Notes under the pieces: model-generated
What the model was told of the DNA's origin: nothing
The model's database searches: none
What the model saw: only the letters and a program-made list of their open reading frames with translations
Shown: positions 19,301 to 26,083 of the stretch, piece after piece
How the letters are laid out: each line of letters opens with the position of its first letter
How positions within the stretch are numbered: the first letter of the stretch is position 1
Position numbers and translations under genes: made by a program
Source of the DNA: Planctomycetota bacterium
GTDB taxonomy: Bacteria > Planctomycetota > UBA1135 > UBA2386
NCBI GenBank assembly: GCA_965228735.1
Contig: OZ245838.1
Span: 4,832,001-4,896,000 of the forward strand
DNA length: 64,000 nt
Direction of reading: 5' to 3'

Positions 19301-20395
19301 TCAGCTCGTGGCGTCGCGTGCGGCGCGGGTCATCGCGATCGCATAGATCACCACCAGGAGAATCCCGGCGACGACCGCGATCTTGCCTGCGGTCGCGGGG
19401 CCGCCCGCGGAAGCTGCGCTGGCGGGCGCGGCCGACAGTCCCAGCGTGTGCGCGAGCGCGCCGCCGACGAGCAGGCCCATGACCGCGACGAACGCGTCGC
19501 CGTTGCCCTCGCCCGTGAGCACGACGAGGCGCACGGGACAGCCGCCGCACAGAGCACCCGTCATGCCGACGAGCGCGAGTCCGAGCATGTTCCACGCCCA
19601 TTCGCCGTGCGCGACGGGTTGGCCTTCGAGTCCGGGTGCGAAGCGGCCGCCGATCACGAGCACGAGCGCGTAGGCGAGCATCAGGGCGACCGCCGCGATG
19701 AGCATCGGGCGGGGGCCGCCGAACACCTGGCGGGCGGCGTTCACGCCGCAGAAGCCGGTTGCCGAGAGGATCGCGCCGCCGCCGATGCCGAGGCCGAGCG
19801 CCAGCAGCCACGGTGCGTGGGCGGGGCCGGTCGTTGCACCGGGGCCCGGGCCGGCGAAGGTGTCACTGATCGCGAACACGAGCAACAGAACGCCGATGAT
19901 GAGGGGTCCGGCGAGCCCGATCGTGAGCGGCACCTCGTGCGTCTTGCCGATCGAGTAGCCGCGCCGTTCGAACGCGCGCGCGATGCCGACGCCGCCGAGG
20001 AAACCCGGCAGCGCGAGCCAGGCGTTCAGGTCGCCGCCGCCGAGGCGTTGGAACAGGCGGAACGGACAGCCGAGGAACACGAGCGCGCCGATCGCCATCG
20101 CGACGCCGAGCAGGAAGCGCATGACGGCGTTCGAGCCGGAGCGGCCGACGTGACGGCCGCTGACGAAGCACCAGATCAACGCGCCGAAGACGAGGCCCGC
20201 GATCTCGGGGCGGAAGACGGCCGGGCCCTGGTGCATCTTGAGCGCGCCCGCGACGTCACGCACGAAACAGGCCCCGCACAGTCCCATGTTGCCCGGGTTG
20301 CCGAGCAGCACGAGCGTCGCGGCCAGCGCGCCGAGCAGTCCGACGAGTGCGATGCCGAGCCAGCGGCGAGCGGGATTCGGTTCGTTGCGCAGCAT
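19301..20395 (-). CDS. yedE: YedE/YeeE family putative selenium transporter
   Basis: GNPGNMGLCGACFVRDVAGAL signature of the selenium-associated YedE subfamily, RPEIAG, LGCPFR...LGGGD, GGCPVR; about 10 TM segments. Confidence 0.9.
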   Translation of the reverse strand: MLRNEPNPARRWLGIALVGLLGALAATLVLLGNPGNMGLCGACFVRDVAGALKMHQGPAVFRPEIAGLVFGALIWCFVSGRHVGRSGSNAVMRFLLGVAMAIGALVFLGCPFRLFQRLGGGDLNAWLALPGFLGGVGIARAFERRGYSIGKTHEVPLTIGLAGPLIIGVLLLVFAISDTFAGPGPGATTGPAHAPWLLALGLGIGGGAILSATGFCGVNAARQVFGGPRPMLIAAVALMLAYALVLVIGGRFAPGLEGQPVAHGEWAWNMLGLALVGMTGALCGGCPVRLVVLTGEGNGDAFVAVMGLLVGGALAHTLGLSAAPASAASAGGPATAGKIAVVAGILLVVIYAIAMTRAARDATS

Positions 20396-20517
20396 CGCCA
20401 GAGTTTGCCTGCGCTGCGGGCTAGCGGCAACGTTCGCCGGGCTGCGTTGCCGCTAGCCCATGATTCCCGTTGCGGTCAGCGCGCTATACGAGGATCGAAC
20501 GTGAAGAAGACGCGGCG

Positions 20518-21528
20518 TCAGAGCCGCAACAGCATCTGGATGTTGCTGCGCGCGTACGGCGTCGGCTCGCCCGCGATCTCCTCGAAGCCGAGTTTGCGAT
20601 ACAGGGTGATCGCTGGCTCGAGCACCGTGTTGCTCTCGAGGAAGAGCTCTGCGGCGCCGAGCTCGCGCGCGCGATCGATCACGGCGCGGCCGAGGCGTTC
20701 GCCGATGCCGAGGCCGCGGACGCGTTCGGTCACCGCCATCTTGGCGAGCTCGAGGCGGCCGTCGCTGCGCGGCATCAGGGCGCACGTGCCGACGATGTCG
20801 TCGTGCAGCGTCGCCATGAAGATCGCGCCGCCGGGGTCGAGCACCGACCGCCACGGATCGGAGAGCGTCTTGCGGTCGGCGTCCTCGACGACGAACCAGT
20901 GTTCGATCCACTCGAGGTTGAGGCGTTCGAACGCGGCCGCATCGCTCGGCGAGTCGTCGAAGTCGCGGACGGCGATCGCGGGTTCGAGCCGTTCGCGCCG
21001 TTTGTTGGCGATGCGCTGATAGAGCCCGCGGTCGTCGAACGCGGACTCGGCCTCCGCGAGCGCCCGCCAGAGATTGTCGTGCATCTCGGCGAGCATCTCG
21101 TCGACGGCGGCGCCGACATCGGCGAACAGCTCCTCGACGCGGTGGCCGACGCGCACGCCCTTCGCGGAGAGCGCGAGGTCCCGCACGCGGCCGTCGTTGG
21201 CGTTGGGCGTCGACTCGACGAGGCCCGCTATGGTCATCGCCTTGACGATCTGGCTGACCGCGGCGTGGCTCATGCCGATCGACTCGGCGAGCTCGGTGAC
21301 GGTGGAGACGCCGGCGACGTCCGTGGCCCCGGCCTCGCGCGGCACATCGGGCCCGGCTTCGCGATCCCGCCGCGCGTTGGCCAGCAGGTAGAAGACCGGA
21401 AACCAGCGCGGGTCGAAGTCGACGCCGTGCAGCTGGTAGGCCTTGGCGGCGTCGTCCGTGAGGCGCTGCGCGAGCGCCCGCAGGCGACTGCCCAGGGCCA
21501 GGCTTCCGGCGCGTTCGTAGAGCTTCAT
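20518..21528 (-). CDS. Bifunctional MarR-type HTH regulator / GNAT acetyltransferase
   Basis: LALGSRLR...FDPRWFPVF...TELAESIGMSHAAVSQ; C-terminal ELAKMAV...RGLGIG...FLESNTVLEPAITLYRKLGF. Confidence 0.9.
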   Translation of the reverse strand: MKLYERAGSLALGSRLRALAQRLTDDAAKAYQLHGVDFDPRWFPVFYLLANARRDREAGPDVPREAGATDVAGVSTVTELAESIGMSHAAVSQIVKAMTIAGLVESTPNANDGRVRDLALSAKGVRVGHRVEELFADVGAAVDEMLAEMHDNLWRALAEAESAFDDRGLYQRIANKRRERLEPAIAVRDFDDSPSDAAAFERLNLEWIEHWFVVEDADRKTLSDPWRSVLDPGGAIFMATLHDDIVGTCALMPRSDGRLELAKMAVTERVRGLGIGERLGRAVIDRARELGAAELFLESNTVLEPAITLYRKLGFEEIAGEPTPYARSNIQMLLRL

Positions 21529-21543
21529 CGGGGCGATTCTCCC

Positions 21544-21567
21544 AGATAGGTAAGAGCTTACATATCT
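21544..21567. promoter_or_regulatory. AT-rich palindromic operator (probable MarR site)
   Basis: AGATAGGTAAG-AG-CTTACATATCT, 11-bp arms with one mismatch, 15 nt upstream of the MarR-GNAT ATG. Confidence 0.65.
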
Positions 21568-21610
21568 CAGGATGCAGCAATGGCTGTCGGTTTGCAAGGG
21601 CCCGTCCGGC

Positions 21611-22708: not shown

Positions 22709-23866
22709 TCACCGCAGGTAGCCCGGCAGCCAGCCGCGGGAACCCTGCGGCGGAATCGCGTCCGCGACATCGCGGCCGTCGGCGATGGTGAAGCGCACGG
22801 CGAGCGGGAAGTCGCCGGGCGGCGCGCCGCGGGTGTAGCGACCCTCGCCGCGGAACGGGCCGAGGCCGATCAGGTCGAAGCGCGTCACGCGCTTGCCGTC
22901 GGTCTCGACGAAGCCGAACAGCGCGGCCTCGTAGCGCCGATCGCCGGTCTTCGTCGCGAGCTCGACGCGGCCCGTGATGCGACCGTCGCGCAGCTTCACG
23001 TCGAGCGCGCGGACCTCCTCGTCGCGCCACATCGGCGGTTCGCCGCGTGTCGCGTCGACGAGGTGGAAGCGGGCGAGTCGGCGCACGAGCGAGTCGGGGA
23101 GCTCGCCGCGAACGAGCGCTTCGTGTTCGTCCCGAGTGAGCCACAGGTTGTCGCGCGAGAGCGCGGACTGCTTGATCCGCTCCCAATCGTCCTTCGGTTC
23201 CGGGTAACCCGCGAGCACGCGGCCGTGCACGCGTACGACGAGTCCGCCGGCCGGCGGCTCGGGCGCGTAGCGCGCGTCGACCTTGCCGCGGTCCATGGCT
23301 TCGACGCTCGTGTCCGCCGCCGCGCTCGCCCGGAACTCCGCGAGCGCCTGGCGCACGAGCCGGCGCACCTTCTGCGGGTCGCGGTTGTTGTTGTAGAGCA
23401 GCAGTTGGCCGCCCGGGGTCGCGACGTAGAAGCCCTGCGTCGTGCGGCGGAAGTCGTGCCGCGGACCCTGCCCGGCGATCGCGCGCCACAGTTCGCCTTC
23501 GTTGTCCTGTTGGCGCCGTTCGTAGGCCTGGTCGATCGCGACGGGCACGAAGTGCTCGTTGAGCAGCGCGATCATCTCGTCGTTGTCGAACGTCGACGCA
23601 CGGTCGAGCACGCCGTTGTTTCAAGTGCAGCCGAGCGGGTGGCCGTCCATCGCCCAGACGAACAGTGGCTTCTGCCGGTCGGCAGCCTCGTTGCGGGCGC
23701 CGAGCAGGTCGATGCGCCACGCGATACGGCGCCACGGCGCGTCCTCGTCGGGCGTGAGCTGCTCGAAGAGCTCCGTGAAGCGCGCCTCGTCGAGCGCCTC
23801 CGCGGTCTGCGCGGCGACGGCGCCCAACAGGGAGAAAAACGAAGCAAACGCGCGGACGTGAGACAT
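22709..23866 (-). CDS. Exported thioredoxin-fold protein, predicted selenoprotein (UGA 23623-23621 = Sec82), SELENON-like active region, 385 aa
   Basis: ORFs 23621..23866 and 22709..23611 share a frame: ...KPLFVWAMDGHPLGCT-U-NNGVLDRASTFDNDEMIALLNEHFVPVAID; the halves form one Trx-like beta1-motif-alpha-beta2 unit; signal peptide; SECIS-like hairpin. Confidence 0.78.
23589..23620 (-). promoter_or_regulatory. Bacterial SECIS-like hairpin
   Basis: mRNA UGA-AACAACGGCGUGC-UCGAC-CGUGC-GUCGA-CGUU; 5-bp upper stem, GU-containing loop after an 18-nt spacer. Confidence 0.55.
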
Positions 23867-24050
23867 GGATCGGCCTCCGAGGACCTGACGACCATACCGG
23901 TCCGTCGACCGGTCGCGGAGGTCCGACCCTCGCCGAAGCTCGGCGATCCTGCATAAGCCGGATCACGAGCGCCGGGGGATCGTAACACGCGCGTCCTCGA
24001 TGGCTCGCACGAGCGGGCCGCGAATCCGTTCCCAGAAACCGAATCGATCT

Positions 24051-24410
24051 ATGAAGAAGACCAGAACCACTCTCGTGTCCGCGGCCGTCACCGGCCTGTT
24101 CATGGGCACTGCCGCGACCACGTTCACCGCTTGCTCGGGCATGCCGAGCGCGTCATCGAGCATGGAGCTCGAGAAGCACGCTTGTAAGACGCTCAACAGC
24201 TGTCAGGGCAAGGGCGGCTGCAGCTCGAGCGCCAACGGCTGCAAGGCCAAGAACGACTGCAAGGGCCAGGGCGGGTGCGCGACCGTCAGCAACGAATGCC
24301 GCGGCCACAACGACTGCAAGGGTCAGGGCGGCTGCAAGACCGCGACCAACTCCTGCAAGGGGCAGAACGACTGCAAGAACCAGGGCGGCTGCAAGGTCAC
24401 CAAGCACTGA
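24051..24410 (+). CDS. Cys-rich bufferin (BufA2)-type RiPP precursor, probable lipoprotein
   Basis: MKKTR+hydrophobic+FTAC; four repeats of C-x5-C-x5-C (e.g. NxCKGxNDCKGQGGC); directly upstream of DUF692. Confidence 0.85.
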   Translation: MKKTRTTLVSAAVTGLFMGTAATTFTACSGMPSASSSMELEKHACKTLNSCQGKGGCSSSANGCKAKNDCKGQGGCATVSNECRGHNDCKGQGGCKTATNSCKGQNDCKNQGGCKVTKH

Positions 24411-24422
24411 TCGCAGACGGCC

Positions 24423-25277
24423 ATGCAGAAGCCCCTCGATCGACTCGTCCAGCGCGACCTCGGCATCGGCATCGGACTCCGGACGGCGCATTACGCGACC
24501 GTCCTGGAGGAGAAGCCGGCCGTCGACTTCTTCGAGATCCTGTCGGAGAACTACATGCACACGGGCGGGCGCCCGTTGCGGGTGCTCGACGAGGTGGCGG
24601 CCCACTACCCGGTCGTCATGCACGGGGTGTCGATGAACATCGGCAGCACGGACCCGCTCGATCGGGAGTACTTGAACGAACTGCGCGCGCTGCAGCGACG
24701 CTGCGGCGCGCGCTGGATCAGTGATCACATCTGCTGGACCGGCGTCGACGGCAAGAATCTGCACGACCTGCTGCCGCTGCCGTATTCGAAGGCGGCCCTC
24801 GCGCACCTCGTCGAGCGCGTCAACGCGGTGCAGGACATCCTGGAGCAGCCGCTCGTGCTCGAGAACCCGAGCACGTACCTGCAGTTCGCGGGTGCCGACT
24901 TCACCGAGGTCGAGTTCCTGCAGGAGCTGACCGCGGCGACCGGCTGTGGGCTGCTCATGGACGTGAACAACGTGTTCGTCTGCGCGGAGAATCACGGCTT
25001 CGACGCGACGGCGTATCTGCGGGCCGTGCCGTGGGACCACGTCGTCTACTTCCATCTCGCGGGCCACTCCGTGCTCGAGACGCACCGGCTCGACACGCAC
25101 GACGGTCCGGTCTGCGACGAGGTCTGGGAGCTCTACGGCCTCGCCCACGAGCTGTCGGGCGGGCGCTCGACCCTGCTCGAATGGGACGCCCACATCCCGT
25201 CGTTCGACGAGGTCCACGCGGAGGCGCAGAAGGCCGAACGCCATCGCGCAGCCAGACCAGCGGAGGTCTCACGGTGA
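24423..25277 (+). CDS. Multinuclear non-heme iron oxidative enzyme (MNIO, DUF692; BufB/MbnB family)
   Basis: GIGLRTAHY, FFEILSENY, HGVSMNIG, SDHICW, HDLLPLP, LENPSTY, DVNNV, HLAGH, DTHD, LLEWD. Confidence 0.95.
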   Translation: MQKPLDRLVQRDLGIGIGLRTAHYATVLEEKPAVDFFEILSENYMHTGGRPLRVLDEVAAHYPVVMHGVSMNIGSTDPLDREYLNELRALQRRCGARWISDHICWTGVDGKNLHDLLPLPYSKAALAHLVERVNAVQDILEQPLVLENPSTYLQFAGADFTEVEFLQELTAATGCGLLMDVNNVFVCAENHGFDATAYLRAVPWDHVVYFHLAGHSVLETHRLDTHDGPVCDEVWELYGLAHELSGGRSTLLEWDAHIPSFDEVHAEAQKAERHRAARPAEVSR

Positions 25278-26083
25278 CCGATCTACGCACGCTCCAGCAG
25301 TGGGTGGCGGCGGTCGTCGAACACCCGAGCACGGCCGATGTCGCGATCCGCAGCAAGGCCGCGACCGCGCTGATCGCCCGTGACGACGTCGACGGGGTCC
25401 TCGTGCCGAACGCGCGGCTCGATGCGGCAGGCATGCTGCAGGTCTACAACGGCGGCTACCTGGCGCGGCTGCTCGAGGTCCTCGAGGGCGATTACGGCGC
25501 CGTGCGAGACGCGATCGGGACGGCCGAGTTCCGTGCGATCGGGGCGCGCTATCTGCAGCGGCACCCGAGCCGGCATCCCAACCTCAATCGCCTCGGGCGC
25601 GGGTTCCCGGCGTTCGTCCAGCGGCAGCGCAGACTGCCGAACCGCCGGTTCGTCACCGAGCTCGCCACGCTCGAGCTGACCTGCTCGCTCGCGTTCGACG
25701 CCTCGGAGTTCGAACCCGTCGCGTTGGAGCAGTTCCGCGACGTCGAGCCGTCACGCTGGGACGCGGCGCGGCTGCAGGTGAACCCGTCGCTCGCCGTGCT
25801 CGCGTTCGCTCACCCGGTCGACGAGTTCTACCAGGCGTGGAAGGAAGACGCCCCGCAGCCCGTGCCCGCCCCCGACCCGTCATGGGTCGCGGTGTTTCGC
25901 AAGAACGACCGGGTGTGGCGGCAGCGGTTGACGGAGCCGATGTTCGCGGTGCTCACGGCGCTCGTCGCCGGCGAACCGTTGGGCCAGGCGCTCGCGCGCG
26001 CCGAGGCGGACAGCCCGGTCGCCGAGTGGTTCCAGGGCTTCGCGGCCCACGGTCTCTTCGTTGGGGTCGACTTCGGCGACTGA
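25274..26083 (+). CDS. DUF2063 family MNIO partner (BufC-like)
   Basis: GTGA overlap with DUF692; LQVYNGGYLARL...YLQRHPS...GRGFPAF...ELATLE. Confidence 0.9.
   Translation: MTDLRTLQQWVAAVVEHPSTADVAIRSKAATALIARDDVDGVLVPNARLDAAGMLQVYNGGYLARLLEVLEGDYGAVRDAIGTAEFRAIGARYLQRHPSRHPNLNRLGRGFPAFVQRQRRLPNRRFVTELATLELTCSLAFDASEFEPVALEQFRDVEPSRWDAARLQVNPSLAVLAFAHPVDEFYQAWKEDAPQPVPAPDPSWVAVFRKNDRVWRQRLTEPMFAVLTALVAGEPLGQALARAEADSPVAEWFQGFAAHGLFVGVDFGD

Follow-up and report, generated by a model that had tools for sequence, protein, structure and literature searches.

A likely new family of thioredoxin-fold bacterial selenoproteins in Planctomycetota, probably a permuted variant of selenoprotein N

The gene and its surroundings

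The window analysed here is a stretch of 64,000 nucleotides (contig OZ245838.1, positions 4,832,001 to 4,896,000) from the genome of a Planctomycetota bacterium (assembly GCA_965228735.1). On its minus strand, an ATG at 23866 starts an open reading frame of 81 amino acids which ends in GHPLGCT and is followed by an in-frame TGA at 23621–23623. Beyond this TGA the same frame is open for 303 more codons, as far as a TGA at 22709–22711 (minus strand). Reading through the internal TGA joins the two frames into a protein of 385 amino acids, with U82 at the TGA. This arrangement was first described in a reading of the sequence alone, and it stands as described. The features of the gene are as follows:

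22709..23866, minus strand: whole gene, 385 amino acids with the TGA read as selenocysteine (U82); AlphaFold2 model, intact single-frame homologs
23874..23878, minus strand: ribosome-binding site GGAGG, 7 nt before the ATG at 23866; sequence
23795..23866, minus strand: predicted signal peptide, about residues 1–19 to 1–24; hydropathy heuristic
23315..23746, minus strand: residues about 41–184, a domain with a thioredoxin fold from the DUF255/AGR2/Thioredoxin_7 branch; weak Pfam match, fold matches
23621..23623, minus strand: TGA within the frame, predicted to encode selenocysteine 82, which takes the place of the first Cys in CxxC; codon conservation, profile alignment
23593..23607, minus strand: upper stem-loop of a predicted bacterial SECIS element, with 5 bp and the loop CGUGC, which begins 18 nt past the UGA; covariation
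22712..23254, minus strand: β-rich C-terminal domain, residues about 205–385; hhalign and secondary-structure agreement with the SELENON-order domain

The second frame had been described as lacking a ribosome-binding site of its own, and indeed nothing resembling GGAGG precedes GTG 23611, the start that a gene caller would choose for the second half. The GC content at third codon positions is 0.90 in the first half and 0.91 in the second, which is coding-like in both. The letters of the TGA codon are covered by contigs of four runs from four studies, one of which may be the source sample, and no differing letter is listed. The run contigs break at this spot because the paralogs share that stretch; a single piece (X8) has at least 31 letters on both sides of the codon, with two other letters at unlisted places. 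A promoter scan near the gene found none, and two terminator-like sites were disregarded as being on the other strand. No RNA dataset was listed as containing the gene sequence.

Divergent from the gene lies a bufferin-type cluster (24000–26083, plus strand), consisting of a Cys-rich BufA2 precursor, a BufB maturase (NCBIfam cut-offs passed) and then a DUF2063 protein. About 2.3 kb downstream, on the same strand as the gene and behind a MarR-GNAT fusion, is a putative selenium transporter of the YedE family (TIGR04112, over cut-off; 19301–21597, minus strand). Nothing in the neighbourhood is conserved beyond close kin: neither the bufferin cluster nor YedE was seen in the short flanks of 161 other loci.

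The in-frame TGA in homologs

A search by protein of 301 genomes of the phylum gave 148 matches in 94 genomes, of which 135 have a TGA (exactly one in 130) and 13 have no stop. The codon column was read in 58 genome-derived genes, with three partial loci dropped and five distant genes read at a TGA one codon off the BLAST column. It is TGA in 53, TGT in one, Ser in two and Val in one, the remaining gene encoding an unrelated DUF255 protein. In metagenomes, a pattern with NNN at the codon matched TGA in 120 of 120 cases (about 870 matching stretches are estimated); its flanking codons were fixed, so that it samples the core subfamilies only. The stop codons TAA and TAG, which would have spoken against selenocysteine, are absent from the column in these 120 metagenome and 58 genome genes, as is TGG. 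In the homologs the sequence is conserved on either side of the TGA. Ten relatives have names, and all of them are Planctomycetota except for one, which belongs to the Verrucomicrobiota. The genome itself has three paralogs of the gene, each with an in-frame TGA and with different hairpins downstream:

G000:C1:3484531-3485658(+), 6929378-6930496(+) and 7086996-7088168(-): family paralogs in the same genome

The expectation that gene callers would split such genes is borne out: C-terminal halves of 285–305 amino acids, starting after the TGA, make up 119 of the 120 top database matches. The halves were not found to occur independently, the partial matches checked being due to contigs that end there (G231) or to a frameshift in the copy (G148). 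Intact longer proteins were found by a domain profile search, and among the 51 examined, 49 have Ser at the site and no Cys there, one has Cys (P0163) and one Trp (P0031, known from the protein alone). Cys homologs, the usual criterion for a selenoprotein and something that the sequence-only reading had proposed to look for at this column, are thus very rare; they form one cluster (L056/P0163, codon TGT), whose protein is 738 amino acids long with a C-terminal SecDF-like periplasmic region.

The intact Ser proteins (P0123–P0172, L057, L058) constitute a conserved subfamily of approximately 420 amino acids with neither Cys nor selenocysteine at the site. At L057 the Ser copy stands in tandem with a TGA form, and the subfamily is possibly a non-catalytic partner. 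Two genes of a contaminated genome (L063 and L064, in G116) each have a second in-frame TGA, one of them at an invariant Trp column, which represents a nonsense change, an assembly error or read-through.

Selenocysteine machinery

The genome of the window has selA, selB and selD over curated cut-offs, selD with a TGA of its own, and a tRNA-Sec (selC) was found; the complete set whose absence would have counted against the sequence-only reading is therefore present. Within the 301 sampled genomes of the phylum, selB is present in 217. The family is carried by 90 of these 217, compared to only 4 of the 84 selB-negative genomes, a difference which is overstated to the extent that related genomes are counted as independent. 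Three of the four selB-negative carriers have TGA forms together with selA (split over two contigs in one of them). G142, the remaining carrier, is 86% complete; neither selA nor selB was found in it, and it carries the Ser form only. The TGA forms thus follow the Sec machinery across the sampled genomes.

A selA gene and a selD fusion adjoin the gene in 5 of 162 loci, all in one clade: in L019, L020, L022, L024 and L025 (Rubripirellula/Rhodopirellula clade) the gene stands tail to tail with selA and with a fusion of an oxidoreductase to SelD.

A hairpin downstream of the TGA

The hairpin with a GU loop that had been claimed to follow the UGA is present, with a stem formed by positions +14 to +18 and +24 to +28 and the loop CGUGC. 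Taken alone it is weak: its energy is -4.3 kcal/mol, it is not the minimum-energy fold, and z is about -0.4. Rfam at E up to 1 gave nothing relevant. Two approaches were discarded as support: a simple SECIS hairpin rule, because it is passed by 78% of 3000 random TGAs of the same genome, and minimum-energy folding of the 3′ region, which gave no significant structure.

It is only the covariation across homologs that lifts the hairpin above chance level. In the closest subfamily, which was picked by its downstream residues D-R, the pair +15:+27 joins the third bases of codons +5 and +9 and is Watson–Crick in 57 of 57 distinct metagenome sequences (CG 45, GC 10, AT 1, TA 1), compared with a mean of 37 and a maximum of 47 in shuffles. 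This pair has the highest mutual information among third-position pairs (0.91 vs 0.39). The Arg codon in the loop is CGT in 50 of the 57, compared with 16% elsewhere in the genes. The genome set concurs, with +15:+27 paired in 33 of 34 and the loop Arg encoded by CGT in 29 of 34. Over 90 distinct sequences, 97.3% of cells in the five stem pairs are paired and the stem covariation is 0.340, against 0.127 when shuffled (0/500) and at most 0.089 when slid, controls that are somewhat flattering in that the structure was read from the same, related sequences. The same five pairs are not kept in other subfamilies, including the three paralogs.

In comparison with the E. coli-type bacterial SECIS model, as set out in the available part of PMC13188914, the hairpin has the same 5-nt loop with G in its first two nucleotides and then U, the same spacing of 18 nt from UGA to loop, and a stem of at least 4 pairs. 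It differs in that the long lower stem is not conserved, and in that its core stem energy falls short of the model threshold of -7.5 kcal/mol, which applies to the whole element. A hairpin with a G(U) loop 16–37 nt downstream is thus present in the closest subfamily by both geometry and covariation. Taking the codon, the machinery and the hairpin together, the TGA is very likely read as selenocysteine.

The thioredoxin domain and its active site

The AlphaFold2 model of residues 20–385 is confident (pLDDT 96.5, pTM 0.93). In Pfam, Thioredoxin_7 is seen in the read-through only and under cut-off, at E 0.008; the gathering score was missed, with 16.7 and 15.8 bits against 27. The folds closest to residues 41–184 among solved structures are 3f9u, DUF255/YyaL, AGR2/AGR3/ERp18 and DsbH-like thioredoxins. 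VIA matches of the model are 3f9u (Z 13.7, rmsd 2.5, 119 aligned), AGR3 (12.3) and 3ira (11.2), and the Foldseek matches include 3ira and 7tkv. A single-sequence search of the PDB was set aside, having given chance matches to ribosomal uS15 only.

In the profile alignment U82 falls opposite the first Cys of the 3IRA sequence CHWC and opposite the Cys of the AGR2 sequence CPHS, and in the model its predicted location is where the active-site helix begins, the place of the attacking Cys in thioredoxins. The UGA does therefore fall at a thioredoxin-fold redox motif, as had been claimed. The fold is that of the DUF255/YyaL (Thioredox_DsbH; 3IRA, 7TKV), AGR2/AGR3/ERp18 and DsbH proteins; the protein differs from these in having selenocysteine and no CxxC, in the extra residues GHPLG before the site, and in the added β-rich domain.

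The family motif is GHP-x-x-x-x-U-x-N-G-x-x-x-R. Residues G75, H76, P77, N84, R89, Q144, G145 and Y147 are invariant near U82 in 35 aligned members. Cys80 is kept in 30 of these 35 and in 38 of 51 distinct TGA sites; it is replaced in the other 13, so that the CxU proposed originally as the motif is not an invariant core. The residue at +3 from U82 is Gly, and a resolving Cys is absent there.

Export, which had also been claimed, is predicted here by heuristic from the sequence of the leader, presumably a signal peptide. Its best 11-residue hydropathy is 1.98, and a value of 1.6 is reached by 126 of 136 homolog leaders but by only 25 of 532 internal windows.

The selenoprotein might bind a soft metal (copper or similar), or act on a peroxide or halogenated small molecule, and not on protein disulfides. 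Consistent with this are the missing resolving Cys at +3 and the missing Pro where SELENON-order proteins (see below) have Y-P, the lack of Pro in a loop of this type being atypical for disulfide-exchanging thioredoxins. The invariant H76 and the common C80 are both beside U82, and the gene is divergent from the bufferin genes for BufA2 and BufB. C-T-U with C-to-A variants is also a deiodinase pattern. Against it, BufB was never found in the flanks of the 161 other loci, which are mostly 1.2–1.5 kb long, and the nearest folds are the DUF255/AGR2/DsbH thioredoxins. Neither deiodinase (PF00837) nor peroxiredoxin is listed among the Pfam matches of the 35 members, deiodinase is not listed for the protein itself, and no peroxiredoxin-like fold came up in the model searches. 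We regard this chemistry as less likely, and prefer a thiol-disulfide function for the site.

Relationship of the thioredoxin domain to selenoprotein N

For the intact Ser homolog P0123, rank 1 in the ESM Atlas is a cluster named “Selenoprotein N” (98% eukaryotic; 0.90, 189/256 features), which we treat as a lead only. A second route was through distant Cys-Sec forms, which led to bacterial proteins with S-C-U-G-S-G after approximately 260–300 residues, here called SCUG-type. There are 8 strong cases in 301 genomes and 11 in 381. Proteins of this type, in SELENON order, are L223, L224, L227, L229, L230, L236 and L238–L241, and P0215–P0221 from databases, where they are also found split at the TGA; P0219 and P0220 have Cys at the Sec position. 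Four SCUG-type proteins were tested against NCBIfam, and none had a match.

The published markers of human SELENON, as printed in the accessible portions of the papers, are SCUG (PMC12839072), U462, G463, R466 and R469 (PMC3541580), and G-Y-I-P at 360–363 (PMC8639696). In the SCUG-type alignment (A4), where 7 of 11 rows have the Sec site, Gly is present at +1 in 6/7, Lys at +4 in 6/7 and Arg at +7 in 7/7, and the proteins have G-Y/F/W-I/V-P-R upstream of the site. The distance from the strand Gly to this G-Y/F/W-I/V-P-R is 42–50 residues in 5 of 8 measurable SCUG-type proteins, and 45 in human SELENON when counted from codon 315 (c.943), which we take to be the conserved strand Gly. Because of this fit to the human markers as far as the papers print them, we call the bacterial SCUG-type proteins SELENON-order. 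The identification is indirect, by way of motifs from papers and one automatic cluster name. Sequence, profile and structure searches returned no named eukaryotic SELENON sequence or structure, and the PDB searches brought up no structure of SELENON.

The thioredoxin domain of the family matches that of the bacterial SCUG-type proteins with an HH probability of 97.6% (E 5e-12, 129 columns), and the four best Foldseek entries are common to the family model and the SCUG-type model. The kinship of this domain to SELENON-type proteins is therefore real. As in SELENON/SEPN1, a eukaryotic selenoprotein of the ER, and the bacterial SCUG-type proteins (L223, L224, P0215–P0221), selenocysteine is placed where the active-site helix of the thioredoxin fold begins, and a predicted extracytoplasmic location and probably the partner domain are common to all of them. 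Gly at U+3 is shared with the SCUG-type proteins. The Arg at U+7 is shared with human SELENON, where it is R469 according to the accessible part of PMC3541580; here it is R89, present in 35/35 members.

There are also differences. The site reads C-T-U-N-N-G here and S-C-U-G-S-G in SELENON and the SCUG type, and N83 (U+1) and V86 (U+4) stand in place of the human G463 and R466 (PMC3541580, same part). The Y-P loop of the SELENON-order proteins is missing, its Pro being Thr or Arg in the family. Selenocysteine is residue 82 of 385, whereas the Sec domain of SELENON is at the C-terminus after a large domain; in contrast to the SELENON order, the thioredoxin domain comes first, behind a signal-peptide-like leader, and the probable partner domain comes second. 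The protein has 385 amino acids compared with 590 in SELENON. Ahead of the main domains, where SELENON has a membrane anchor and an EF-hand, there is one hydrophobic leader, and Pfam lists no EF-hand family at E up to 0.1. With no SCUG and no Arg at U+4, the family is a relative of SELENON and not a member, and the sequence-only description as SELENON-like is borne out in part. Both layouts occur together in six of the eight genomes that carry the SCUG one.

We also observed small exported Cys-Sec proteins of the C-U-L-G-G-R type that consist of the thioredoxin domain only (L066, L193–L207, L222), and of which there are also forms with Cys. A domain related to this type is carried by P0300 and P0371, both probably eukaryotic.

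The C-terminal domain

The C-terminal domain, which the sequence-only reading left as unknown, can now be compared with the N-terminal domain of the SELENON-order proteins. The two align end-to-end, though weakly, over 167 columns by hhalign (probability 35%, E 4e-4). The HH probability rose from 3.7 to 21, 24 and 35% as sequences were added, and is only 1.4% with the protein of the window as reference row. The final score of 31.0 compares with a mean of 16.8 and a maximum of 30.6 in block shuffles (0/120 higher) and with 17.5 for the reversed alignment; in the earlier run at 24%, 1 of 100 shuffles was higher. Under this alignment, wherever both predicted models are structured the helix or strand type is equal, at 50 of 50 positions in the local and 62 of 62 in the global version, and the three-state agreement is 0.66, compared with a mean of 0.43 and a maximum of 0.63 for shifted registers.

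On the six frames of the genome, a profile of the SELENON-order domain did not pick out the family genes, the best paralog having rank 34. PDB searches with the whole model gave no clear match for the second domain, and single-sequence hhalign of the full alignment against the N-terminal part of L220 gave a short thioredoxin overlap only. In the Atlas, the top three for the C-domain alone are hypothetical clusters, with SELENON absent.

The alternative is that the C-terminal domain of this selenoprotein is unrelated to that of SELENON and shares with it a β-meander only, the thioredoxin domains being related nevertheless. The low HH probabilities (4–35%), the failed rank test and the Atlas result all point in that direction. 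Set against them, the alignment is colinear from first to last strand, its score rose from 29.2 to 31.0 with added sequences and in the final run lies above the shuffled and reversed controls, the secondary-structure types agree between two separate models, and the compared domain is the one attached to the closest thioredoxin relative. We therefore judge an unrelated domain to be unlikely. On comparison with the bacterial SCUG-type proteins only, the C-terminal domain is quite probably the one that SELENON-order proteins have ahead of their thioredoxin fold, with the order of the two swapped.

Coverage in catalogues and related frames

Our search of the published literature found no report of a bacterial SELENON or of this family. 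An unpublished thesis reportedly deals with a SELENON homolog of Poribacteria. NCBIfam (June 2026) has no model for the protein or for its halves. The nearest NCBIfam model is the VPGUxxT family type 2 (NF041383), a catalogued bacterial selenoprotein which belongs to the same thioredoxin branch and is matched weakly by 9 of the 35 members, at E 6.7e-5 in the best case; its motif is different, the protein of the window does not match it at E up to 1, and a separate VPGU-type gene is found elsewhere in the genome.

The family is absent from the 119-family table of a 2026 review, as far as the available part of PMC13188914 goes; the families of Haft and Tolstoy (2025) were covered via that table. 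It is not mentioned in the portions available of the BSepDB and deep-Sep papers (PMC12013277) or of PMC7539508, BSepDB being covered through its paper. Nor can it be identified in the planctomycete candidates of Table S9, within the accessible part of PMC4807772, where one hypothetical and two thioredoxin-like candidates are listed without sequences. The deep-Sep method keeps a new candidate only if a Sec homolog is known for it, or if two homologs with Cys rank among its ten best hits (PMC12013277, in the part available). The family has almost no Cys forms, and it is for this reason that it was missed by the catalogues and stayed invisible. We conclude that it is a new family of thioredoxin-fold bacterial selenoproteins, likely a permuted SELENON variant.

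Further thioredoxin-like frames with an active-site TGA are found in the same genome (G000:C1) near 2546133(+) (EFC-U-SN), 3235828(+) (GMW-U-PG), 4985312(-) (YSP-U-PPC) and 6694148(-) (VPG-U-KTC). The EFC-U-SN and GMW-U-PG frames may be further uncatalogued selenoproteins.

Proposed mechanism and implications

The reading that we favour, and hold to be probable, is that of a single gene decoded by hairpin-guided SelB, whose product would be an exported thioredoxin-fold selenoenzyme, likely a thiol-disulfide reductase or isomerase, with the SELENON domains swapped. That the TGA is instead a true stop between two conserved genes, or Trp in a non-standard code, is very improbable: the separate database entries for the halves, the Trp of P0031 and the second TGAs of G116 could be cited for it, but TAA, TAG and TGG never occupy the column in the 120 + 58 genes, termination here would sever the thioredoxin fold within the turn of its active site, homologs with Ser or Cys are intact, the gene itself ends in TGA, which is a common terminal stop in homologs, and there are the covarying hairpin and the dependence on selA/selB.

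In the mechanism that we propose, SelB, guided by the conserved hairpin just downstream, would insert selenocysteine at the UGA. The predicted product is an exported periplasmic selenoenzyme of 385 residues, which would likely act in the periplasm as a thiol-disulfide reductase or isomerase. An envelope substrate would be held against the second domain while U82 attacks an oxidised sulfur in it. The second domain would present the substrate, and its invariant residues W242, R263, H268, D271, R274 and G275 suggest a binding surface. Because +3 is Gly and not a resolving Cys, either Cys80, in those members that have it (30/35 aligned), or an outside thiol would resolve the mixed selenenylsulfide.

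With this analysis a phylum in which most sampled genomes have selB gains a selenoprotein family that is both very common and mis-annotated. We lean towards a wider view, in which planctomycetes contain a large and so far hidden superfamily of exported selenoenzymes of the SELENON type, with two layouts related by circular permutation, and in which the core of SELENON is of bacterial origin. The reversed layout described here is far commoner than the SCUG layout, being found in approximately 31% of the sampled genomes with up to six matches each. Myopathy positions of SELENON such as R469 have a counterpart here, in this case R89. If the swap is true, small soluble proteins of bacteria contain both domains of SELENON, and its core fold, redox chemistry and substrate would be testable in a soluble, well-folding model.
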